From an uncultured Clostridium sp. (GTDB lineage Bacteria > Bacillota > Clostridia > TANB77 > CAG-508): a stretch of 64,000 bases of DNA. The stretch is taken from contig CAYJIP010000002.1 in NCBI GenBank assembly GCA_964370265.1, positions 52,620 through 116,619 on the forward strand. Direction: 5' to 3'. Below, piece by piece: positions 15,619-55,867 of this stretch. The number at the start of each line of letters is the position of its first letter. Position 1 is the first letter of the stretch. A model generated the notes under the pieces. That model was not told the DNA's origin and searched no databases. It saw nothing but the letters and a program-made list of their open reading frames with translations. The position numbers and the translations under genes are program-made.

Positions 15619-16071
15619 ATGAACACAAAATTAATAGCAAAAAACAGTACAGCTTATCATAATTATACTATAGAAAATAAGATGGAAGTTGGAATTGTTT
15701 TATCTGGTACAGAAATAAAATCATTAAGAGCTGGAAAAGTAAATTTTAAAGACTCTTATGCATATATTAAAGATGGAGAAATATATATATGTGGAATGCA
15801 TATTAGTCCATATGAATTTGGGAATATATTTAACAAAGACCCTCTACGTGATAGAAAACTATTATTACACAAACAAGAGATTTTTAAATTAATAGGACTT
15901 ACTCAACAAAAAGGATACAGCCTAATTCCTATTAGCATCTATTTCAAAGGTTCTTTAGTGAAAATAGATCTTGGTATTGGTAAAGGTAAAAAACTTTATG
16001 ATAAACGTAATGACATTGCTAAAAAAGATGCACAAAGAACTATTCAAATACATTTAAAGAATAACAGATAA
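15619..16071 (+). CDS. smpB: SsrA-binding protein SmpB
   Basis: NKSAYHNY-like start, [21 protein letters not shown]. Confidence 0.9.
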
Positions 16072-16187: not shown

Positions 16188-16430
16188 CTAAATTATTTCA
16201 ATTATTTCTATTTCCATATTACTATCTATTTTTCCATATATACAAATATAGGTATTTTTCTTAAAATACCTATAACAAAAATCAGATATACCATTAATAG
16301 AATATACAAAAACTATTCCATTTTCTAATTCTACCTTGAATTTACATTTAGAATATGTTTTGGATTTATTAATAACAAACCTGTATTCAATATCACTCAC
16401 TATTTTTCCTGTTAAAAATACACTATTCAT
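16188..16430 (-). CDS. small OB-fold, SSB-like protein (80 aa), last gene of the DGR cassette
   Basis: MNSVFLTGKIVSDIEYRF...CKFKVELENG..VFVYSINGISDFCYRYFKKNTYICIYGKI follows the SSB/OB N-terminal pattern (MNxVxLxGxlxxDxExR ... KKGxxvxvxG). ATG at 16430 lies 5 nt after AGAGG. The track's longer ORF (to 16592) has no SD. Confidence 0.55.
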   Translation of the reverse strand: MNSVFLTGKIVSDIEYRFVINKSKTYSKCKFKVELENGIVFVYSINGISDFCYRYFKKNTYICIYGKIDSNMEIEIIEII

Positions 16431-16624
16431 TTTAACCTCTACATTAATTAATATATTTATATTTGTAATATATTCATTTTCAATACAAGAATATATATTT
16501 CTTTTATTTACTAACATATATATTACTGATTCATTTTTACCACTTAAGGATGGAATAAATCTCTTTAATACTAATATTATCACTGTATACATTCCTTAAA
16601 ATGTATAATCTCGATTCATATTAG
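16431..16624 (-). other. non-coding region immediately 3-prime of the TR (candidate DGR RNA spacer/priming region)
   Basis: 194 nt between the TR 3-prime end and the SD-supported start of the OB-fold ORF. Assigned by analogy with the Bordetella DGR, where the region 3-prime of the TR primes cDNA synthesis. Confidence 0.3.
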
Positions 16625-16756
16625 AGTACAGACCTAAAACCTATATTGCCATTAGTATTAGTGGGATTGTTGTTGTTTCTGTATGACGCTGGATTGTTCG
16701 AACCATTGTTGTTGTAATTACCTCCACGATTAACCGCTGGATTGTTAGTGTTAGAG
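16625..16756 (-). repeat. DGR template repeat (TR)
   Basis: Gap-free 132-bp alignment to 18865..18996 (offset 2240). All 16 mismatches have T on the plus strand (A on the coding strand) in this copy. It is non-coding; read in the VR frame it is Asn(AAY)-rich. Confidence 0.95.
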
Positions 16757-16801
16757 CTTTTGATTTATCCCAAAGTAAATTAATTTATACAAACTGTATA
16801 T

Positions 16802-17827
16802 TTACATATAAAACATAGTGTTTTCCAGATTCCAAGTATCTGCTATTTTCATATACCCTAAATGTCCTGCTAAATACTTTCTTGCTTCATAACAACTTAT
16901 TTCTCCATTTTTAACTTTCATTTTTAGTTTCTTAATCTTTTTCTTTAACTTTCGTTTCCCTTTATCTCTAATCTTAAGCCTATACTCATTTATTTTGTAT
17001 CCACAAAAATTAACTCCTTGTTTTCCTTTAAATATTTGTGTCTTACTATTTAACCTCAAACCTAATTTTATATCTAAAAACTCTGTTATTTTATTTAAAA
17101 TATCTTTTGCTTGTTGTTTTGTTTTTACAATTAAAACACTATCATCCATGTATCTAGCATAATACTTGATCTTTAATTCTTCTTTAATATATTTATCTAT
17201 TTCGTTTAAATATATATTAGCAAATATTTGAGATGTATAGTTACCTATTTCAATCCCAACTTCTTTTTTTTGTATATACAATATTTGCTTTATTAACCAC
17301 ATTACTTTTTTGTCTTTTATTTTTCTTTCTAATATTTTTATTAATATTTCCTTATTTATACTATCAAAATATTTAGCTACATCCATTTTTAATATATAGT
17401 ATTCTCCATATATGTTTTTAGCTTTTTTCATCATTTTTTGTACATATTCACAAGAACTATGCATTCCTTTGTTATTAATACATGCAAATGATGAATATAT
17501 AAACTTAGGAAAATATATTGGTTTTAATATATTATCTACTAACCATCTTTGTACTATTCTATCAATATATTTTGCTTTCTCTATTTTCCTTACTTTAGGT
17601 TCTGAAATATAGAATGTTGTATATGTACCATGACAATAACTCATATCAGATAATTTTTCATATAGCCATAATATATATTCCTCTTGCTTTAAATTAAATA
17701 AGATAATATCTTTCCTATATCCTTTTCCTTTTTTACTATCATTATGTGCTTTTATTAAAAGATCATATGTTAAAACTTTATCATAAACATTTTTAATTGT
17801 TTTTGCCATAAAATTTAACCATTCCAC
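16802..17827 (-). CDS. DGR reverse transcriptase
   Basis: Carries the RT motifs, including IGNYTSQIFANIYL ([I/L]GxxxSQ, the DGR hallmark) and the YMDD box (ARYMDDSVLIV). Alternative start ATG at 17809. Overlaps the avd stop. Confidence 0.95.
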   Translation of the reverse strand: MEWLNFMAKTIKNVYDKVLTYDLLIKAHNDSKKGKGYRKDIILFNLKQEEYILWLYEKLSDMSYCHGTYTTFYISEPKVRKIEKAKYIDRIVQRWLVDNILKPIYFPKFIYSSFACINNKGMHSSCEYVQKMMKKAKNIYGEYYILKMDVAKYFDSINKEILIKILERKIKDKKVMWLIKQILYIQKKEVGIEIGNYTSQIFANIYLNEIDKYIKEELKIKYYARYMDDSVLIVKTKQQAKDILNKITEFLDIKLGLRLNSKTQIFKGKQGVNFCGYKINEYRLKIRDKGKRKLKKKIKKLKMKVKNGEISCYEARKYLAGHLGYMKIADTWNLENTMFYM

Positions 17828-18158
17828 CTAATATTTTACCTATTTCATAAATTAATCCAATAGAAACATTAAATTTCTTTTCATCTATCCATTTATTCTT
17901 TTTCATTATCCTTAAATAAATTCTTTGTACATTTAATTTACTATCAATCCTGTTTAATATTTCTAAAACAAATATATTATCTTTTTTATTAATTTTTTCT
18001 AAATACAAAACATATTCTAACATTTCATACATGGATTTTTTAAAACTATTTCCAATACTAAATTTTTCTGTTCTAGGTAATTTAATTATACATTCAATCA
18101 TATACTCTATATATTTTTCACATTTAGGTATTAATTGTAATCTTTCACTTGTTTTCAT
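17793..18158 (-). CDS. avd: DGR accessory variability determinant (Avd, four-helix-bundle family)
   Basis: 121 aa, basic, helical. PRTEKFSIGNSFKKSMYEMLEYVLY ... IGKILGGMVKF matches the Avd / 23S-rRNA-IVS-protein pattern. Overlaps both neighbouring ORFs (coupled operon). Confidence 0.85.
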   Translation of the reverse strand: MKTSERLQLIPKCEKYIEYMIECIIKLPRTEKFSIGNSFKKSMYEMLEYVLYLEKINKKDNIFVLEILNRIDSKLNVQRIYLRIMKKNKWIDEKKFNVSIGLIYEIGKILGGMVKFYGKNN

Positions 18159-18591
18159 TTTCTAGTTCTTCTTTCAATTCATCTTGTTCCCACAATTTGC
18201 CTAAAGCTTCTAAATATTTTGTTTTTTCATATATAGCTTTAGATTTACATTCCATACAATTAATATTATTTGCAGAACTTTCAATTCTTTTCCCATCTTC
18301 CTTTTCACAAATTAAATTTAATTCTTCTTTTTCTGATATATATTTATATACAATATATGAATAATCTTTTTCATTTAACATGTCTATATATTTATCTAAA
18401 GATTTAATTGGAAATCCTACTTTACATACTCCTTTAGACATACAACTTAGTTTTAATCCTATAGCTTTATTTAATTCTATTGCATCTTTATGTGTAGCAA
18501 TATAGAAAATTCCTATTCCAACTAATACTATTTTACCTTCTTGTCTATCTTGTAATAATTCCATCATTCCTGTTAATGTCATCCCACACAT
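18145..18591 (-). CDS. MutS domain-I-like small protein (DGR accessory ORF)
   Basis: GMMELLQDRQEGKIVLVGIGIFYIATHKDAIELNKAIGLKLS..CKVGFPIKSLDKYIDMLNEKDYSYIVY aligns by eye with the MutS N-terminus in this window ([74 protein letters not shown]). SD AAAGGTGGA upstream. Confidence 0.65.
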   Translation of the reverse strand: MCGMTLTGMMELLQDRQEGKIVLVGIGIFYIATHKDAIELNKAIGLKLSCMSKGVCKVGFPIKSLDKYIDMLNEKDYSYIVYKYISEKEELNLICEKEDGKRIESSANNINCMECKSKAIYEKTKYLEALGKLWEQDELKEELENENK

Positions 18592-18615: not shown

Positions 18616-18707
18616 GGGCACCATAAGGCTTAGAAACGGCTAATGGCGCCACACCAGTGACGCCACACCAGTGGCGAAAATTGCTTTCTGGCAAAATTTC
18701 ATTTTGC
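18616..18707 (-). other. GC-rich structured element (tandem 14-bp repeat / multiple hairpins) in the target-accessory intergenic region
   Basis: 14-bp direct repeat gcgccacaccagtg/acgccacaccagtg (18646..18673). Hairpins cgccac-acca-gtggcg (18661..18676) and gcaaaat-ttc-attttgc (18691..18707). 8-bp stem 18617-24/18643-50 whose single non-Watson-Crick pair is G-U only in the minus-strand RNA. Confidence 0.45.
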
Positions 18708-18857
18708 TAAAAACCAATTTTCGAACCACTTTGTGTTTATTTAATTTTAACCTTTTTACACATGATTTAGTATTTAAAATTTCTTTATTAAAATTCAAAT
18801 TTAATATAAACTCTAATTTAAGCTTTGATATAATCACGGTTATAGCTATCAGTACTA

Positions 18858-20210
18858 CTAATAAAGTACAGACCTAAAACCTATAACGCCATCAGTATTA
18901 GTGGGATAGTCGTTGTAGCTGTATGACGCTGGATGGACCGAACCATTGCTGTCGTAATCACCTCCACGATTAACCGCTGGAAAGTTAGTGCTAGAGTTTG
19001 TTTCTAATGTCCATTCCCATACATTTCCTGCTATGTCATTTATATTTAATATTTCCGAATTTCCTACTTCTCCTGCTGTTCCTATTCCACTTAATGTATC
19101 ATTAGAAGCAGTTCCTGTATAATTCCCTATAGTTGTACTATCGTTATTTAATGTTGCTACAGGTATGCTTCCTCTAATTTCCATAAATTTAAGTATTAAA
19201 TCCCATTGGAATCCAAACATTAAACTTCCTGTTGTTCCTTCTAAATTCATACTTTCTGCTTTAGTTTGAGAATTTTCTTTATTTATATTAATATATATCG
19301 TAGCTCCATATCCTGATACAGGTGTATTTGCAACTCCAGCTACTGTTGCATTTCCAACTTCATATCTTGATACCCAGAATCCTTCTTTTTCATATATACT
19401 TTTTAATACTGCATTTTTTTGTGTATTATATGTGTCTTCACTTGTAAATACTCCTGAATTAGCTCTATATTCATCTGAATACGTATAATTTCCATATTTC
19501 GGTGTCTTATATTCTGATGTATAGCTATTTATATTTTCCTCTATTTTTGTATAATCAGTTGATGATGTTACTCCTGAATTAATACTATCTTGTGGTACTT
19601 CTACCCATACCCATTCATTGTTATTTTTATTTGTATCAACCATTACTAAACCTTCATTTACACTATCTTCTGTTTCTTCTGTTGATACTTTACCACCTTC
19701 TGGTATTAATACTGTTTTTCCATCTGGATCAGTATATTCTTCTCCACCTGCTCCTGCTACATCACCTTTTGCTAATCCTTCTGTATCAGTTCCTGTTCCT
19801 CCTGAACTTGTTTCTCCAGGTTTTTTAACTTCTACTTCATATCCATTCATTTCTACTTTTATTGGATATTGAGTGTCTAATATATCTGTTGTTGTACTTG
19901 GTATATCTGAACCATCTGCTCCTGTTATTTTTGTTGCTCCTTCTTTAAATAGTTCTTCTACCATTGTTTTTTCATTTACTTTTCCTGTATTGTCATAACT
20001 TCCTAATATTGCTAATGTTACTTTTTCTTCTGCTTCTGCTCTTGCTGTTTCTTCTCCTGCTTTTGTTGCTTGAGTTAATATTCCATTTTCTCCTGTTAAC
20101 ATTGCTATTGATACTCCTGCTAATATTAGAAGTACAATTATTGTTATTACTAAGCTTATTAATGTAATACCTTTAGTTTGTTTTAAACTTATTTTTGTTT
20201 TTTCTTTCAT
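18858..20210 (-). CDS. DGR variable (target) protein: prepilin-like N-terminal TM segment + FGE/sulfatase-modifying-factor-like C-type lectin domain
   Basis: N-terminus MKEKTKISLKQTKGITLISLVITIIVLLILAGVSI (pilin-like). C-terminal motifs GFWVSRYEVG, FGFQWDLILKFM, AGNVWEWT, NRGGDY, IGFRSVLY. The VR occupies the last ~44 codons. Confidence 0.9.
   Translation of the reverse strand: MKEKTKISLKQTKGITLISLVITIIVLLILAGVSIAMLTGENGILTQATKAGEETARAEAEEKVTLAILGSYDNTGKVNEKTMVEELFKEGATKITGADGSDIPSTTTDILDTQYPIKVEMNGYEVEVKKPGETSSGGTGTDTEGLAKGDVAGAGGEEYTDPDGKTVLIPEGGKVSTEETEDSVNEGLVMVDTNKNNNEWVWVEVPQDSINSGVTSSTDYTKIEENINSYTSEYKTPKYGNYTYSDEYRANSGVFTSEDTYNTQKNAVLKSIYEKEGFWVSRYEVGNATVAGVANTPVSGYGATIYININKENSQTKAESMNLEGTTGSLMFGFQWDLILKFMEIRGSIPVATLNNDSTTIGNYTGTASNDTLSGIGTAGEVGNSEILNINDIAGNVWEWTLETNSSTNFPAVNRGGDYDSNGSVHPASYSYNDYPTNTDGVIGFRSVLY
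18865..18996 (-). repeat. DGR variable repeat (VR)
   Basis: See TR. Lies inside the 3-prime end of ORF 18858..20210. 16 substitutions relative to the TR, all at TR adenines, changing 13 residues. Confidence 0.95.
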
Positions 20211-24969: not shown

Positions 24970-25785
24970 TTAATTCTTGAAATAATTTTTCAACCACATT
25001 TCTACGCCTTTTTCATCATTAGAGCTTGTAACCGAGTCTGAATTTAATTTAATATCTTCTATAGCATTTCCCATTGCAACACCTATTCCAGTGTTTTGAA
25101 TCATTTCTAAATCATTTATAGAATCTCCAAATGAAATACTATTTTTTTCTGGGATATCATGTATTTTTGAGACTTCTGAAATAATTGCATATTTATCTAT
25201 ATTATTTTTTCTAATTTCTATCCAAGATACATGACTGTTTGAATCTTTCATAATATACATATTATATCCTTCAAGTTTATTATTTTCATTAAAGTATTTA
25301 ACTGTTTCATCATATGATTTTAAAACGACAGACATATGAATAATATCTATTTTTTCTTCTAATAATTCTTCTATATCATTATATCTAATTACATTTTTCA
25401 CACCATGTGGTGATGAATTTAACATTTTATCATAACTATATATTGATTTATCTGTTGCTATATTTAATGATTTTATATCATATTTTTTTGTTTTATAAAA
25501 TATATCTTTAACTATATCATATGAAAATTCAGCATATATTTTATTTTTATCTTTTTTAACATCATATAGTAGTCCACCTGCATTGCATGCAACATAATCT
25601 ATATAATCTAATTTACCTAAAACATCTATTGCAGCAGCATAATATCTACCTGTGTTTATCATAATAATATGACCTTGTTTTCTTAATTTTCTAAAATATT
25701 CTTTTGTACTTTCTGGAACTATTTTTTCTTCATTTAATAAAGTTCCATCTAAATCTATTGATATTATTTTTTTATCTATATTCAT
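24970..25785 (-). CDS. Cof-type HAD-IIB phosphatase (copy 1)
   Basis: IDLDGTLL (motif I), INTGR, GDSINDLEM (motif IV region). Confidence 0.85.
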   Translation of the reverse strand: MNIDKKIISIDLDGTLLNEEKIVPESTKEYFRKLRKQGHIIMINTGRYYAAAIDVLGKLDYIDYVACNAGGLLYDVKKDKNKIYAEFSYDIVKDIFYKTKKYDIKSLNIATDKSIYSYDKMLNSSPHGVKNVIRYNDIEELLEEKIDIIHMSVVLKSYDETVKYFNENNKLEGYNMYIMKDSNSHVSWIEIRKNNIDKYAIISEVSKIHDIPEKNSISFGDSINDLEMIQNTGIGVAMGNAIEDIKLNSDSVTSSNDEKGVEMWLKNYFKN

Positions 25786-25882: not shown

Positions 25883-26698
25883 TTAATTCTTAAAATAATT
25901 TCTCAACCATACTTCTACACCTTTTTCATTATTAGATATTGTAATCGAATTTGCATTCTGTTTTATTTCTTCTACAGCATTTCCCATAGCAACACCTATT
26001 CCAGCATTTTGAATCATTTCTAAATCATTTATAGAATCACCAAATGAGATGGTATTTTTTTCTGATATATCATGTACTCTTGAAATTTTTGAAATAATTG
26101 AATATTTATCTATATTATTTTTTCTAATTTCTATCCAACATTCATCATTATTTGACTCTTTCATAATATACATATTATATCCTTCAAGGTTATTATTTTC
26201 ATTAAGATATTTAACAGTATCATTATATGTATTTAAATTTATGTACATATGAGTTACACATATTTTGTTTTCTAATAATTTTTCTATAGTATTATATCTT
26301 ATTGTATTCTCTCTACATTCTGTTAGCAATTTGAACATTTTATCATATGTATATATTGATTTATCTGTTGCTATATTTAATGATTTTATATTATATTTTT
26401 GTGTTCTATGGAATATTTCTTTAACTATATCATATGAAAATTCGGAATATATTTCAGTTTTTTGTTTTTTAACATCATAAATTAATCCACCAGCACTACA
26501 TGCGACATAATCTATATAATCTAATTTACCTAAAACATCCATTGCAACAGCATAATATCTACCTGTATTTATTATGATTATATGACCTTGTTTTCTTAAT
26601 TCTCTAAAATATTCTTTTGTGCTTTCTGGAACTGTTTTTTCTTCATTTAATAGCGTACCATCTAAATCGATCGATATTATTTTTTTATCTAATTTCAT
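25883..26698 (-). CDS. Cof-type HAD-IIB phosphatase (copy 2, tandem paralog)
   Basis: Same length (271 aa) and same motifs as copy 1. Roughly 75-85% identical to it by eye. Confidence 0.85.
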   Translation of the reverse strand: MKLDKKIISIDLDGTLLNEEKTVPESTKEYFRELRKQGHIIIINTGRYYAVAMDVLGKLDYIDYVACSAGGLIYDVKKQKTEIYSEFSYDIVKEIFHRTQKYNIKSLNIATDKSIYTYDKMFKLLTECRENTIRYNTIEKLLENKICVTHMYINLNTYNDTVKYLNENNNLEGYNMYIMKESNNDECWIEIRKNNIDKYSIISKISRVHDISEKNTISFGDSINDLEMIQNAGIGVAMGNAVEEIKQNANSITISNNEKGVEVWLRNYFKN

Positions 26699-28460: not shown

Positions 28461-29324
28461 TTATTTATTATTTCTTATTTCTAGTATCTCTTGTTTTGAT
28501 AAAGTTGTAATCTCTGAAATTTGTTCAATACTCATATTGTTTTTTAGCAGCTTTTCTGCAATTATTACTTTTCCTTGTTGAATTCCTTCTTCTCTTCCTT
28601 CTTCTAATCCTCTATCATAATTATTTTTCATTGCATCATTATATTTTCTTTTATCATCTTCTTCTCTTTCTATATATTCTAATATATCTTCATCTTCTAC
28701 TAATTTTTCTACTTCTTTATATAATTTTACAATATTATTATTTATCCCCATAACTTCTCCCATTTCTTTCATATCTTCACATAGTATTGCTATTAACCAT
28801 TGTACTAGTTTTTCATTTAAATTATGTTTTACTTTTTTGAATTTTGGTAATTCTATTAAAAACATTTTCATTTTTGTATTCAAATTTTGCACTTCATGAA
28901 CAACTCCATTTTTATCTACTTTTTCTATTTTATAGTTTGTTTCTGATATGTAGTTATATTCATCTATGAATAACTCAAAATCTAAAATTCCTATTACTAT
29001 TACATTCTTAGCTTTACTATAGTCTTCTCCTGCTTTCATACTTTCTGTATATATTTTAGATTGGTAAAACAAAAATCTTTCTATCGTATTATGCTCATTT
29101 GTTACTTGCATCTCTATATTTATTTTTGTTCCATCTTCTAATTCTGTTAATATATCTAATATTCCAAATTTAGAATCTTTTCTATATTTTTCTAATGTAA
29201 AATCTTTACTTAATATTTTTATATCTTTTATTTCATATTTTGTTATTGATTTTAATAAATCTATTAATGGTTCTTTATTTTTAGAAAATACTAACTTAAA
29301 TATGAAATCTCTTTTTAGTGTCAC
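28461..29324 (-). CDS. Rpn-family recombination-promoting nuclease / PD-(D/E)XK putative transposase
   Basis: FIFKLVFSKNKEPLIDLLKSI ... GILDILTELEDGTKINIEMQ (PD-(D/E)XK core). Start uncertain: the GTG at 29324 has no SD, and a strong GGAGG lies 36 nt upstream, followed by an in-frame ATA. Confidence 0.7.
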   Translation of the reverse strand: MTLKRDFIFKLVFSKNKEPLIDLLKSITKYEIKDIKILSKDFTLEKYRKDSKFGILDILTELEDGTKINIEMQVTNEHNTIERFLFYQSKIYTESMKAGEDYSKAKNVIVIGILDFELFIDEYNYISETNYKIEKVDKNGVVHEVQNLNTKMKMFLIELPKFKKVKHNLNEKLVQWLIAILCEDMKEMGEVMGINNNIVKLYKEVEKLVEDEDILEYIEREEDDKRKYNDAMKNNYDRGLEEGREEGIQQGKVIIAEKLLKNNMSIEQISEITTLSKQEILEIRNNK

Positions 29325-36816: not shown

Positions 36817-37287
36817 TTAGAAGAATATTATTAATCTAATAGCTACTCCTAAAATAACTTCTGGTGTGACTAATTCTGCTATTACGTCTTCTATCTCTTT
36901 TACATCTGGTCGCTCTGAAACAATTTCTATTTTATATCCTTCTACATCATGTACATTGAAAAAGAATTCAAACATATTCGAATCATTTTGAGGTAAATCC
37001 GCTATTTTTAGATATTTTACACCTAATATATTATCTCTTTCTGAATATAACTCTATTTTTAAGTATTGTTCTGAATTATTTGATATTAATTCTTCAGATA
37101 AAAAACCTCTTATTCTTCCATTTATACTTGTAGCTTCTGCTTGAAATATTTCTATTTCTTGCGATACTTCTATTTCTTCAATTTTATTATATGCTGAATT
37201 CAAACTAACATTAATTAAAAAATTAGAAAATATATAAAATAACGCTATCCATAATATATATTTTGTTATTTGTTTTAATCTATCCAT
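36817..37287 (-). CDS. hypothetical bitopic membrane protein (paralog A)
   Basis: 156 aa with N- and C-terminal TM. Paralog of 37776..38243 (MDRLKQITKYILWI.. vs MDRMKQLIKYVLWI..). Confidence 0.55.
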   Translation of the reverse strand: MDRLKQITKYILWIALFYIFSNFLINVSLNSAYNKIEEIEVSQEIEIFQAEATSINGRIRGFLSEELISNNSEQYLKIELYSERDNILGVKYLKIADLPQNDSNMFEFFFNVHDVEGYKIEIVSERPDVKEIEDVIAELVTPEVILGVAIRLIIFF

Positions 37288-37775: not shown

Positions 37776-38243
37776 TTATGCCCAAAATATTAGCATTACA
37801 ACTATTGTTCCAAATATTATTTGTGATTGAGTTAATTCCGTTGATAATAATGTAATTGGTTCCGCTTCTGGCTTTGTATCAACTATTTCCATTTTGTAAC
37901 TTTCTACATTATCTACATCAAACAATATTTCAAATGCTTCTGTTTCTTCTATATATCCTAGCTCAACATATGTTGTACCTAACAAAATATCTCTTTCTGA
38001 ATATAATTCTGTTTTTAAATATTTACCCGATATTTCGTCTGTTTCTTCTGATAGTATTACACCTCTTATTCTCCCATTTATTTTTGTAGATTCTGCTTGA
38101 TATACGTCTATTTGATAATTTTTATCTAATCTTTGCATACCATTATATGATGAATTTAAACTTACATTTATTAAAAAATTTGAAAGTATAAAAAATCCAA
38201 TTATCCATAATACATATTTTATTAGTTGTTTCATTCTATCCAT
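37776..38243 (-). CDS. hypothetical bitopic membrane protein (paralog B)
   Basis: 155 aa with the same architecture as 36817..37287. Confidence 0.55.
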   Translation of the reverse strand: MDRMKQLIKYVLWIIGFFILSNFLINVSLNSSYNGMQRLDKNYQIDVYQAESTKINGRIRGVILSEETDEISGKYLKTELYSERDILLGTTYVELGYIEETEAFEILFDVDNVESYKMEIVDTKPEAEPITLLSTELTQSQIIFGTIVVMLIFWA

Positions 38244-43235: not shown

Positions 43236-45848
43236 TTACTGCATTTTCTCTTTTATTCTTGATAGTGTATTTAATGCATCTATTGGTGTTAATTCATTTA
43301 AATTTATTTTATCAATTTCATGTGCTATTTCTGCTAATTTATAGTTAAACATATCAAATTGACCTTCAACTTGTTTCTTAGTTTCTTTTTCAATTTTTTT
43401 ATCAGACATAATACTTTTCTTTTCTAATTTTTTCAATATTTCATTTGCTTTTTGTGTTACAACTTTTGGAACCCCAGCTAGACGTGCTACATGTATTCCA
43501 TAACTATCATCAGTTCCACCTCTTACTATTTTACGTAAAAATATTATATCTTCTCCTTTTTCTTTAACTGCTACTGAATAATTTTTAACACCTTCTAGTT
43601 TATCTTCTAATTCAACCAATTCATGATAATGTGTTGCAAATAATGTTTTGGCACCACATTTTTCTGAATCTGCAATAAATTCTGCTACTGCCCATGCTAT
43701 AGATAATCCATCATATGTAGATGTTCCTCTACCTATTTCATCTAGGATTACAAGGCTTTTATTTGTTGCTTCATTTAATATTGTTGCAACCTCCATCATT
43801 TCAACCATAAAAGTACTTTGTCCTTGACTTAAGTCATCTGATGCACCTACTCTTGTAAAGATTTTATCTACAATTCCTATATCCGCTTTATTAGCTGGCA
43901 CGAATGAACCTATTTGAGCCATTAAATTAATTAATGCAACTTGTCTCATATATGTTGATTTACCTGCCATATTTGGCCCTGTTATTATTGACAACCTATT
44001 ATCATCTCTATCTAAATATGTATCATTGTCAACAAATTGCCCTATTCCTATTATTTTTTCAATAACTGGATGTCTTCCACCTTCTATATTCAATACTCCT
44101 GATGTATTAATATTAGGCATACAATAGTTTAAATCTTCTGCTACTATTGCAAATGATGTTAATACATCAAGTGTAGAAATAGCTTCTGCTGTTTTTTGTA
44201 ATCTTCTAATATTTTTAGCAATTTCTAATCTTATTTGATTAAAAGCTTCATATTCCAATACAACAACTTTTTCTTCTGCTCCTAATATTTGTTCTTCAAA
44301 ATTTTTCAATTCTTCTGTTATATATCTTTCACAATTTGCTAATGTCTGTTTTCTAATAAATCTATCTGGAACTTCACTTAAAAACGATTTTGTAACTTCA
44401 AAATAGTAACCAAATATTTTATTAAATCCAATTTTAAGATTTTTAATACCTGTTTTTTCTTTTTCTTCTGCTTCTAAATTTATTAACCAATTCTTTCCTT
44501 CTGTCCCTGCCAATTTTAATTTATCTATTTCTGCGTCAAAACCAAGTTTTATAATGCCTCCATCTTTAATTGTTATTGGTGGTTCTTCTACTATTGCTTT
44601 ATCTATTATTTTTTCTAAATCTTGAAGATCTTCTAACTCTTCATTTAATTTTTTTATTAATTCAGAATTACAATTAGATATTTCTATTTTCAATTCAGGT
44701 AATCGTTGAAGTGAATTTTTAAGTGTTATCATATCTCTTGCATTACAATTTCCATATGTCATTTTCGCTGCCAATCGTTCGATATCATATACTTTTTTTA
44801 GATTTTCTATAATATCGCCTCTAAGCATAATATTATCTTTTAATTCTTGTACCGATTCTAATCTTCTACTTATTTCTAAAGCATCAATTAATGGATCATT
44901 TATCCATCTTCTTAATTGTCTAGCCCCCATCGATGTAGATGTTTTATCTAATACCCACAAAAGAGTTCCTTTTTTAGATTTATCTTTCATTCTTTCTGTT
45001 AATTCAAGATTTCTTCTAGCATTTATATCTAAAGCCATATATTTTGATATTTGATATATATTAATTTTATTTATATGTTCCAAACTAGTTTTTTGAGTTT
45101 GAGCTATGTATTCTGTTAAAGCATTAATTGAACTCACATATATAGCATCTTCATTTATTTTCTCTATTTCAGTATTATTCGGACCATATATTGTATATTT
45201 ATTTAATAAGTTTTCAGCATCATTTGTGAAGAATTTGTCATTAAATCGTGTAATATATGACTCGAATCTCTCTTTAATTTTAGCTATCTCATCACTACAA
45301 TCGTACATCATTGAATTTACTATTAATTCTGACGGAGTAAATCTTGCTATCTCATCAAGTAATAATGGAAAATTATGTGTTCCTCTTATTTCAGATGAAT
45401 AAAATTCACCTGTTGAAATATCACATACACTTATTCCAAAATATATACCTGTTTTATATATTGACATTATATAATTATTTCTTTTTTCTTCAAGCATATT
45501 GCTTTCAACTATTGTTCCTGGTGTTACTACTCTGACAACACCTCTTTCAACAATACCTTTTGTTTCTTTAGGGTCTGATAATTGCTCACATATTGCGACT
45601 TTAAATCCTTTTTCAATTAGTCTTGCTATATATGTTTCTGCTGAATGATGCGGAACTCCAGCCATTGGTGCTTTCTCCTCAGCTCCACAAGCTTTTCCTG
45701 TTAATGTTAATTCTAATTCTCGTGATACTGTTATTGCATCATCAAAAAACATTTCATAAAAATCGCCTAATCTATAGAATAGGATACAATCTTTATATTC
45801 TTCTTTTGTTTCAAGATATTTTTGCATCATAGGTGAATATTGTGTCAC
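43236..45848 (-). CDS. mutS: DNA mismatch repair protein MutS
   Basis: GDFYEMFFDDA (domain I), GPNMAGKSTYMRQ (Walker A), DEIGRGTSTYDG. Confidence 0.95.
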   Translation of the reverse strand: MTQYSPMMQKYLETKEEYKDCILFYRLGDFYEMFFDDAITVSRELELTLTGKACGAEEKAPMAGVPHHSAETYIARLIEKGFKVAICEQLSDPKETKGIVERGVVRVVTPGTIVESNMLEEKRNNYIMSIYKTGIYFGISVCDISTGEFYSSEIRGTHNFPLLLDEIARFTPSELIVNSMMYDCSDEIAKIKERFESYITRFNDKFFTNDAENLLNKYTIYGPNNTEIEKINEDAIYVSSINALTEYIAQTQKTSLEHINKINIYQISKYMALDINARRNLELTERMKDKSKKGTLLWVLDKTSTSMGARQLRRWINDPLIDALEISRRLESVQELKDNIMLRGDIIENLKKVYDIERLAAKMTYGNCNARDMITLKNSLQRLPELKIEISNCNSELIKKLNEELEDLQDLEKIIDKAIVEEPPITIKDGGIIKLGFDAEIDKLKLAGTEGKNWLINLEAEEKEKTGIKNLKIGFNKIFGYYFEVTKSFLSEVPDRFIRKQTLANCERYITEELKNFEEQILGAEEKVVVLEYEAFNQIRLEIAKNIRRLQKTAEAISTLDVLTSFAIVAEDLNYCMPNINTSGVLNIEGGRHPVIEKIIGIGQFVDNDTYLDRDDNRLSIITGPNMAGKSTYMRQVALINLMAQIGSFVPANKADIGIVDKIFTRVGASDDLSQGQSTFMVEMMEVATILNEATNKSLVILDEIGRGTSTYDGLSIAWAVAEFIADSEKCGAKTLFATHYHELVELEDKLEGVKNYSVAVKEKGEDIIFLRKIVRGGTDDSYGIHVARLAGVPKVVTQKANEILKKLEKKSIMSDKKIEKETKKQVEGQFDMFNYKLAEIAHEIDKINLNELTPIDALNTLSRIKEKMQ

Positions 45849-54502: not shown

Positions 54503-55867
54503 TTAATATAAAACTACTCTAAATCCAACATCTTCTAAATATGATGTTGTTGAATGAATTCTTCTTGTTGCCACAGACCCTTGTGATTGTGTACCATTCA
54601 TTCCTGAAAGTAAATAATTTCCGCCTCTACTAACAATAGGATATTGAGAAGATGCATTACTATTTTCTAATGTGAATTCATAAGCATTTCCTGCTAAATC
54701 ATATATATTTAGTATTTCATTTGTCACATTATTCCCTGTAATTGTAGCTCCTGTAGTTAATAAGAATGCTGCATTTTGTGCTTTAGTTACACTACTTTCC
54801 ACAGTTAAATATTGTGGCATTCTTCCTGCTATATATTCTTGATATTTTCCACTTGTTAACTGATAACTTGTATTTCTGTGATTCCCTATATTCGTACTAT
54901 TAATTAATAGTGTACTTTCTTCCACATCACCTGAAATTTGCATAAATTTCAATATTAAATCCCATTGAAATCCGAACATTAGTGATGAATTATATTCTTC
55001 ATTGCTCAATGTTTTTGCAGCAGTAGTTGCTTGTCCTATTGTAACATAGTTATATACAAACTTATCTTTTTGTACTACCATTGTCGATATTTGGTTAGTG
55101 CTAGAACTAGAGTAATCTCTTTGTATTGTTTCACTTATACCTGATTCATATCTACCAACCCAAAATCCATTATATTCATATATACTTTCAAGTATAGCAT
55201 CTTTAACATCAGAATTTTCCGGATCTGTGTGTACCTCTTTTTTATATGCTGATACATATCTATTTATATCTTCTTCTATCTTATCGTGGTCACTTATTTT
55301 TGTATCTTCACTAAATTCTTCTTCTGGCATAGGAATCCATACAAATTCGTTCCCGTCTAGCGTCATTACTAAACCTTCTTCTATTTCATCTTCATCTGTA
55401 TTTGGTGATAAAATGGCTCCATCTGGTAAAAACACATCTGGATAAATAGCTGTTGTTCCCATACTATCTGGTTTTTCAACTTCTATATCATATCCATCTA
55501 CTGTTACTGTTATTGGATAATCATTATCCGGCAAGTCTAAAGTCCCTTCTGGTACATTACCTGTTTCTAATCCAGTTATTTTTTCTGATATTTTCCAAAG
55601 TTCTTCTAATAACTTTGATTCTACTAAATCTCCTGAATTATTATGACTTCCTAATATTGCAACTTTAACTTTTTCTTCTGCTGCTGCTTTTTTTGATTCA
55701 GATGATGAATCTTCTGCTTGATTTAATATTCCATTATCTCCTGTTAATAAACCTATTGATACCCCTGCTAGTATTAGAAGTACTATTATTGTTATAACAA
55801 GTGATATAAGCGTTATCCCCTTATTTTTGTTCATTTTTTGTCTTTCTTTTAAAGTTTCTTTTCTCAT
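54503..55867 (-). CDS. pilin-like N-terminus + FGE/C-type-lectin-like protein, paralog of the DGR target (no match to this TR)
   Basis: KGITLISLVITIIVLLILAGVSIGLLTGDNGIL, GFWVGRYESG, SLMFGFQWDLILKFM, AGNAYEFT and VGFRVVLY all parallel ORF 18858..20210. Confidence 0.85.
   Translation of the reverse strand: MRKETLKERQKMNKNKGITLISLVITIIVLLILAGVSIGLLTGDNGILNQAEDSSSESKKAAAEEKVKVAILGSHNNSGDLVESKLLEELWKISEKITGLETGNVPEGTLDLPDNDYPITVTVDGYDIEVEKPDSMGTTAIYPDVFLPDGAILSPNTDEDEIEEGLVMTLDGNEFVWIPMPEEEFSEDTKISDHDKIEEDINRYVSAYKKEVHTDPENSDVKDAILESIYEYNGFWVGRYESGISETIQRDYSSSSTNQISTMVVQKDKFVYNYVTIGQATTAAKTLSNEEYNSSLMFGFQWDLILKFMQISGDVEESTLLINSTNIGNHRNTSYQLTSGKYQEYIAGRMPQYLTVESSVTKAQNAAFLLTTGATITGNNVTNEILNIYDLAGNAYEFTLENSNASSQYPIVSRGGNYLLSGMNGTQSQGSVATRRIHSTTSYLEDVGFRVVLY

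Follow-up and report, generated by a model that had tools for sequence, protein, structure and literature searches.

What does an uncultured gut bacterium diversify at its surface, and how is the diversified part held outside the cell? These questions are raised by a 64,000-nucleotide stretch of contig CAYJIP010000002.1 from an uncultured Clostridium sp. (hereafter the window; 25% G+C across its length), which carries a diversity-generating retroelement (DGR) together with its target gene (18858–20210, minus strand). An initial annotation of this DNA had proposed that the target combines a prepilin-like N-terminus with a fold shared by FGE-sulfatase and C-type-lectin (CLec) proteins, and that it may be a hypervariable adhesin displayed on a pilin or anchored like one. 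Our own answer, given with moderate confidence, is that an active DGR varies the binding face of an exported, non-enzymatic lectin-fold protein which is tethered by a pilin-derived helix and acts as a variable surface adhesin or receptor. As to the mode of display, we lean towards tethered, pilin-like anchoring over a classical pilus subunit.

The DGR cassette and its adenine-confined variation

The target gene ends in the variable repeat (VR; 18859–18999, minus strand), which makes up its last 141 nt (codons 405–450 of 450), and this repeat has a non-coding counterpart of 141 nt, the template repeat (TR; 16619–16759, minus strand), downstream of the reverse transcriptase (RT) gene. Compared with each other, the two copies are 87% identical over 141 nt, and within a 132-nt core 16/16 mismatches fall at TR adenines with no mismatch at any other base; as the TR core consists of 37% A, the chance of such a placement is about 1.3e-7. 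It is this confinement of mismatches to the adenines of the RT-proximal copy that identifies that copy as TR and the gene end as VR. Thirteen codons are changed (407, 410, 418, 420, 421, 425, 426, 431, 432, 434, 435, 440 and 442), spanning 18885–18992 and lying, as had been stated for the 13 varied residues in the initial annotation, entirely within the final 44 aa. All but one of them (12/13) read AAY in TR, and with 17 AAY codons in total in the VR frame the number of possible proteins is at least 15^17 (~10^20). The 3' end of VR carries a 21-nt stretch identical to TR, similar to an initiation of mutagenic homing (IMH) site, which extends into the last codons.

The same positions stand out across the protein family. 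In an alignment of 46 relatives, entropy averages 2.9 bits over the VR columns, compared with 1.45 in neighbouring columns. The VR columns hold mostly N, Y, S, D and G, and the most variable columns of the family are the positions of the 17 TR AAY codons. This pattern looks like that of a tolerated, exposed surface shaped by DGR activity. At codon 431 (listed at window positions 18883–18885), TR AGA (Arg) corresponds to AGC (Ser) in VR, an A-to-C change at the third codon position.

The cassette runs on the minus strand from 20210 down to 16488, in the order target, MSL, avd, RT, TR and RT-14 RNA. The open reading frame (ORF) of the target encodes exactly the 450-aa protein that had been quoted from it. 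A gap of 266 nt separates it from the ORF of the accessory gene MSL (18145–18591, minus strand), whose small 148-aa product is MutS domain I-like (Pfam MutS_I, E = 1.6e-6, 28.8 bits against a cut-off of 20.6). Then follow the genes for the 121-aa accessory protein Avd (17793–18158, minus strand; Pfam bAvd, E = 2.1e-17; NCBIfam DivGenRetAVD, E = 4.5e-19) and for the 341-aa RT (16802–17827, minus strand; Pfam RVT_1, E = 9.5e-19), which has the YMDD motif at residue 226 and, at residue 194, IGNYTSQ, an instance of the DGR-type motif [LIV]GxxxSQ. The last element is a structured RNA matching the full length of the RT-14 model (Rfam RF02921; 16488–16626, minus strand; 92.2 bits against a gathering score of 48.1), the 5' end of which (16626) overlaps the last bases of TR. 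RT-14 is a curated motif of RNAs associated with RTs, and at this locus it evidently belongs to a DGR RNA. By analogy with the Bordetella TR-Sp RNA, it is probably the 3' element of the DGR RNA needed for cDNA priming; no link between RT-14 and DGRs was found in the searchable literature.

The locus has the features by which DGRs are recognised, namely TR/VR differences confined to adenines, an RT of the DGR clade, accessory proteins and a VR at the 3' end of a CLec-fold ORF. The earlier claim that the protein is a DGR target was borne out, with the TR/VR pair, RT, Avd and MSL all present. The cassette is a textbook DGR of the MSL-containing type, and judging by its parts it is a complete chromosomal element that is apparently functional. 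MSL is a known DGR accessory class which co-occurs with avd (Wu et al. 2018, PMC5758913), and the Architecture D DGRs of the same study are alike in having MSL and avd and no HRDC gene; compared with them, the order here is the one given above, with the RT-14 RNA abutting TR.

Several smaller observations concern the cassette and its immediate borders. MSL keeps a G-x-F-Y motif (GIFYIA) where MutS has the mismatch-binding GDFYE, with Ile replacing Glu. We rejected the idea that MSL is a recent copy of the host MutS gene (43236–45848, minus strand), as there was no significant BLAST similarity between the two. Between the target and MSL, within 18645–18723, lies a GC-rich tandem direct repeat (CACTGGTGTGGCG, two copies) in surroundings of 25% GC, together with a 23-nt inverted repeat (18675–18697 and 18701–18723) that is 87% complementary; these repeats may represent a terminator, a promoter or an element related to the DGR. 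Just 3' of the RT-14 RNA is a small ORF (16188–16429, minus strand) of about 80 aa, read from an internal ATG at 16429 (MNSVFLTGKIV...), with a faint match to the single-stranded DNA-binding protein (SSB)/OB-fold (Pfam SSB, E = 0.048). Its product could be another DGR accessory or have nothing to do with the element. A longer, 134-aa call of this ORF overlaps the RT-14 RNA, and its 5' end is probably spurious.

The lectin-fold domain and the pilin-like N-terminus

The assignment of the C-terminal half to the FGE/C-type-lectin fold agrees with what structure comparison finds. An AlphaFold2 (AF2) model built from 46 homologs, with a mean predicted local distance difference test (pLDDT) score of 84.9, shows a well-predicted domain from about residue 150 to 450 (18861–19763, minus strand) behind a disordered linker at residues 133–143. 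Foldseek against the PDB returned only proteins of the FGE/C-type-lectin fold (EgtB, TaqVP, PvdO, FGE, pFGE, TvpA and Mtd, with probabilities of 0.84–1.0), including the DGR variable proteins TaqVP (5vf4, 1.0), TvpA (2y3c, 0.84) and Mtd (1yu*, ~1.0). The FGE-type motifs that had been quoted from the sequence are present, and the corresponding Pfam family, FGE-sulfatase (PF03781), does match (E = 3e-4), albeit over residues 387–447 only and at 20.9 bits, under the gathering score of 23.3; it also matches 22 of the 46 relatives at E <= 0.1, the best at 7.4e-7. The 13 changed codons map to the C-terminal strands and loops of the fold, modelled there with pLDDT values of 88–94. The target protein contains no cysteine. 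FGE catalysis requires two active-site cysteines, and the protein therefore cannot be an FGE-type enzyme; we take its C-terminal domain to be a non-enzymatic module with a putative role in ligand binding.

Comparison with the known variable proteins TvpA (Treponema denticola), TaqVP (Thermus aquaticus) and Mtd (Bordetella phage) shows both shared features and differences. All are alike in placing VR at the extreme C-terminus of a CLec/FGE-type fold, in the AAY-rich codons of their TR and, presumably in the present case, in a surface or extracellular ligand-binding role. On the other hand, sequence identity to the three is only 12–16%, and whereas TvpA is a lipoprotein and Mtd sits at a phage tail-fibre tip, the target instead has a pilin-type helix followed by an alpha/beta stalk module of about 120 aa.

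The first 39 residues (20094–20210, minus strand) resemble a class III (prepilin) signal in matches to PROSITE PS00409, Pfam N_methyl and PDB profiles. A 13-aa basic leader ending in Lys-Gly (MKEKTKISLKQTK-G) is followed by a 24-residue hydrophobic helix, and the N-terminal string reads as it had been quoted, with Ser rather than Glu at +5 after the Gly. A stretch of 24 hydrophobic residues is too long for the h-region of a Sec signal, which we counted in favour of a membrane anchor. When KGITLISLVITIIVLLILAGV is held against PS00409, 20/21 positions fit and the sole failure is Glu5. Among the 46 aligned relatives Gly-1, Thr+2 and Ile+4 are invariant, Leu+3 is found in 45, and position +5 is Ala in 34, Ser in 10, Thr in 2 and Glu in none; a wider count over 74 family N-termini from the window and 81 related loci, which leaves out a ninth regular-expression match with Ser that is an unrelated ORF, gives 65 Ala, 8 Ser, 1 Thr and 0 Glu. 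Pfam N_methyl (PF07963) reaches E = 0.088 and 12.9 bits on the target, compared with a cut-off of 21.2, and TIGR02532 gave no match in the target at E <= 0.1, so neither of the two profile searches upheld the prepilin assignment; N_methyl does match 35 of the 46 relatives at E <= 0.1 (best 3.3e-4). With a profile of the N-terminal module against the PDB, the top matches are pilins (a Geobacter pilin at E = 0.0017, MshA, PilA, with values ranging up to 0.078), aligned in register with KGFTLIE. In hhalign, the alignment with pilins and pseudopilins of E. coli covers only 34 N-terminal columns (P = 0.0034, probability 9.5%).

The helix is part of a conserved carrier, the N-module (aa 1–132; 19815–20210, minus strand), for which AF2 models predict a helix at 13–39, a kink at TGENG, a helix at 44–69, a short helix and three beta-strands, forming an alpha/beta unit that reaches residue 128. 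A separate model of the N-module (pLDDT 76), searched with Foldseek against the PDB, returned no pilin (best E = 0.55). Of the marks of the pilin class, then, the basic leader and the hydrophobic tract are present, and Glu5, a hidden Markov model (HMM) score above threshold and linkage to assembly genes are missing. The proposal of a prepilin-like N-terminus is in this way partly supported: the resemblance in sequence is real, with the PS00409 and PDB matches, and at the same time weak and atypical, given the absent Glu5, the sub-threshold HMM score and the lack of a pilin match in Foldseek. The protein should not be classed with the pilins, even though it may function as they do. Display on a pilin, as had been suggested, is unproven; anchoring like a pilin is a reasonable description.

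Family, modularity and pilus machinery

The target is one member of a very large family. More than 6,200 homologs are detectable, some of them labelled 'type II secretion system protein' or 'FGE.../PilE' in their source databases, and relatives occur at 478 loci in one-genome-per-species references, nearly all of them from uncultured gut Clostridia, often in several copies per genome, of which as many as five stand in tandem. Searching with an N-module profile yields 30,712 cluster representatives (clusters at 50% identity) at E <= 0.001. One paralog lies in the window itself (54503–55867, minus strand); it is 454 aa long and 38% identical to the target, has an identical N-terminal helix and carries a C-terminal insertion relative to the target. 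This paralog, the MSL gene, the RT-14 RNA by TR and the size of the family were all absent from the initial annotation.

Both halves of the protein also occur in other combinations. The N-module is found alone, as complete genes of 125–145 aa, of which those retrieved carry Ala at +5, and also with unrelated C-terminal modules. The lectin domain, in turn, occurs behind other N-terminal hydrophobic signals at eight of the related loci (L030, L050, L051, L058, L062, L071, L042 and L057); these alternative N-termini include MRRANNKIIGGIVLLAI..., which resembles SipW-dependent/TasA-type signals, and ...ERGAITALVLASFLL.... The comparison of these sequences indicates that export and anchor modules have been swapped behind the lectin domain. 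Given that the N-module has other partners and the lectin domain other signals, both can be seen as exchangeable modules of a surface-display repertoire.

Such modularity has parallels among pilins and their relatives. The modular pilins PilB and PilC of S. sanguinis (PMC8179133; Shahin 2023, PMC9934059) are alike in that a linker connects a short pilin-like N-module with a grafted module of adhesive or lectin type, and an N_methyl + SUMF/FGE architecture is listed among modular pilins, with 8 proteins (Raynaud 2021, PMC8179133). PilB and PilC, however, have the canonical Glu5, belong to a pilus operon and are experimentally pilus-associated, whereas the target lacks Glu5, is unlinked to pilus genes and is diversified by a DGR. 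A class III-like signal without Glu5 is shared with the tip subunits GspK, of the type II secretion system (T2SS), and S. sanguinis PilA; these are single, dedicated subunits of their operons, whereas here Glu5 is missing from a sampled superfamily with tens of thousands of cluster representatives, pilin-sized members included. Gut DGRs that vary adhesive parts of surface appendages are described for Bacteroides type V pilus adhesins (bioRxiv 10.1101/2024.11.15.621889), which differ from the target in their pilus type (V), their phylum (Bacteroidota) and their anchoring and assembly. In the searchable literature we found no paper joining 'diversity-generating retroelement' with 'prepilin'; a GspG-type pilin domain is mentioned in passing among DGR targets (PMC11661182).

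A search for pilus machinery gave little to connect with the family. The statement that the window is without pilus assembly genes held up: phmmer with E. coli HofB, HofC, GspE, GspF and GspO found nothing in the window, and a Pfam scan of 10 otherwise unidentified ORFs of the window found no pilus assembly gene. Homologs of the T2SSE ATPase, the platform protein and the A24 peptidase were likewise absent from the 81 related loci (1.27 Mb), in which family genes are scattered and their neighbours not conserved. A Tad-like cluster for a type IV filament (L091 5471–17206; also L088–L090 1–6580) lies beside a homolog of the target (P0023/P0026) in a Clostridia species from the human gut. The cluster comprises a CpaB-like gene, two TadZ-like genes, a 648-aa ATPase with a weak T2SSE match, a 692-aa membrane protein that is found on more than 100 contigs, a 539-aa protein and five or six small pseudopilins with an N-terminus of the 'MENASKALIIAG' type, and it has almost no Pfam or NCBIfam matches. 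At least one species that bears the family thus has a type IV filament system, but use of that system by the family does not follow. We considered the cluster as the machinery of the family and rejected it: the adjacency is not conserved, as the family gene and its insertion sequence (IS) fragments are missing at this site in a strain with an identical platform protein, the pseudopilins differ from the family (MENASKALIIAG), and no homologs of the cluster were found in the window or in the related loci.

DGR remnants lie directly 3' of family genes in three other species: a truncated MSL pseudogene followed by housekeeping genes (L052 11558–11920), an MSL fragment at a contig end (L040 4609–4755) and an RT fragment (L009 11508–11693). 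This suggests that the link between DGR and family is recurrent, and it is probably ancestral but usually lost; the window is a rare intact example of a DGR next to a family gene. Furthermore, the family-wide hypervariability at AAY positions suggests that DGRs have shaped the whole family. Two further possibilities were set aside. Trans-targeting was rejected: when the 3'-terminal 170 nt of 109 family genes were compared among themselves and against TR, a match to TR was seen for the window's own VR only. DGRs hidden by contig breaks 3' of family genes were rejected too, 17 of 107 genes lying within 1.5 kb of a contig end and an MSL fragment being found in L040 only.

Competing readings and their implications

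In the account that we favour, RT, Avd and the small MutS-like protein would copy a transcript holding TR and the adjoining RT-14 RNA. Adenines would be copied unfaithfully into cDNA, which would then replace the last ~140 nt of the target gene and recode up to 17 Asn (AAY) codons, along with a handful of others, on strands and loops at the C-terminus of the C-type-lectin fold. The protein would be exported and held at the cytoplasmic membrane by its N-terminal hydrophobic helix, derived from or mimicking a type IV pilin class III signal. Its lectin domain would be exposed externally, carried by a small stalk module of alpha/beta type with a flexible linker, and may serve the gut Clostridia cell as an adhesin or receptor that varies. 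Among cellular DGRs, most targets are binding proteins anchored in the membrane through their N-terminus (Roux 2021, PMC8144416), and the present target falls into the known class of such anchored cellular targets with a CLec fold.

Several points weigh against this account, some of them touching the activity of the element and others the role of the helix. In a search for RT or Avd genes beside 107 family genes from 80 reference loci, no intact DGR was found, and the paralog within the window has neither a TR/VR match nor a DGR in its vicinity; in present-day genomes diversification is thus exceptional. The case for activity rests on one VR allele, and in this allele Arg431, kept in 44 of 46 relatives, is Ser; such a loss of a scaffold residue may be a by-product of adenine mutagenesis that has left the present allele impaired or weakened. 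Finally, the N-terminal helix is near-invariant across paralogs that are otherwise ~38–58% identical, which would be unusual for a passive anchor and speaks for some specific partner, for example a peptidase, a platform protein or adjoining subunits.

This extreme conservation favours the strongest alternative, a true modular type IV pilin, which we consider possible yet unlikely. A peptidase would cut after Gly14, and the N-module would enter a type IV pilus (T4P) or Com-like filament as a Glu5-less tip bearing the DGR-varied lectin adhesin. Such a protein would account for the 20/21 fit to PS00409 with its invariant Gly-1 and Thr+2 and nearly invariant Leu+3, for pilins being the best PDB sequence matches of the N-module and N_methyl matching 35 of 46 relatives, for the pilin-sized stand-alone modules of 125–145 aa, and for relatives labelled as type II secretion system proteins or PilE; it has precedents in the N_methyl + FGE-sulfatase architecture catalogued among modular pilins (8 proteins; PMC8179133, Dataset S1) and in absent Glu5 as a known mark of tip-capping subunits (GspK, S. 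sanguinis PilA; PMC9934059), and at least one family-bearing genome has a Tad-like filament cluster. However, the tip-only logic fails for the family, as Glu5 is absent from 74/74 N-termini and the stand-alone modules have Ala at +5. Foldseek and hhalign yielded no clear pilin match, at the values given above, T2SSE, platform and A24 peptidase genes are lacking in the window and in the 1.27 Mb of related loci with their unconserved neighbours, the lone Tad-like adjacency is accompanied by IS fragments and not shared between strains, and the lectin domain occurs behind N-termini that are not pilin-like as well. A bolder idea, which we rate as slightly less likely still, is that the near-invariant, Glu5-less 'KGITLI(A/S)LVITIIVLLILAG' N-module is the hallmark of a pilin-like system for display or filament formation, so far uncharacterised, in uncultured gut Clostridia, to which the DGR supplies a hypervariable lectin head.

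Other readings concern the state and the origin of the element and the activity of its target. If the DGR were a decaying relic, the TR/VR differences would record past diversification with no mobilisation at present; decay in relatives (the truncated MSL followed by housekeeping genes in L052, the RT fragment in L009) and the loss of the conserved Arg431 fit this view, but none of the four ORFs is broken, RT retains its catalytic motifs, TR is intact with its 17 AAY codons, the RT-14 RNA matches its full model at 92 bits, and the 132-nt core has no non-A mismatch, all of which makes a relic improbable. A prophage, with the target as a phage receptor-binding protein, would be in keeping with the many gut DGRs that are phage-borne (PMC8144416) and with the RT itself, which is 33–36% identical to phage RTs over 94–97% of its length, Bordetella phage being among 96 matching records. 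Given housekeeping flanks, a family that is chromosomal and multi-copy, and a target without a tblastn match in 50,697 phage records, we consider this very unlikely. Almost inconceivable is a formylglycine-generating or sulfoxide-synthase-type enzyme: it could explain the weak Pfam FGE-sulfatase match and the presence of FGE and EgtB among the top Foldseek matches, but not the absence of the two cysteines, a sub-gathering match spanning only the C-terminal 60 residues, or hypervariable residues in the region that forms the ligand-binding surface of TvpA, Mtd and TaqVP.

The housekeeping genes flanking the cassette are smpB, a Sua5-like gene, a zinc ABC transporter, a Fur-family regulator and an RdgB-like gene. 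Of these, smpB (15619–16071, plus strand) directly adjoins the DGR; a transfer-messenger RNA (tmRNA) integration site was considered and dropped, as neither ARAGORN nor Rfam found a tmRNA gene in the 64-kb window. Elsewhere in the window are two tandem paralog pairs, one of HAD-type hydrolase-like genes by sequence (24970–25785 and 25883–26698, minus strand; repeat 87% identical over 300 nt) and one of small membrane proteins of 155–156 aa (36817–37287 and 37776–38243, minus strand; repeat 79% identical over 119 nt). A PD-(D/E)XK nuclease family transposase-like gene (28461–29324, minus strand; Pfam PDDEXK_2, E = 1.4e-34) is the only mobile-element-like gene that we noticed.

What this locus means for the biology of its host depends on the N-module. 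If it is only an anchor, as in the tethered display that we favour, the target would be one more membrane-tethered CLec protein among DGR targets. If it undergoes processing and polymerisation, adhesins at filament tips, tunable by DGR, would exist in gut Firmicutes, in parallel to the Bacteroides type V pilus adhesins, and the family would offer a natural test case for Glu5-independent type IV filament assembly. Should the more speculative pilin-like display system prove true, it would be the first DGR-diversified type IV-filament-like adhesin, with an assembly chemistry that has no need of Glu5. DGR targets reveal the surface interactions that a microbe must re-tune fast, and the family of this one ranks among the largest uncharacterised groups of surface proteins in low-GC, uncultured gut Clostridia.

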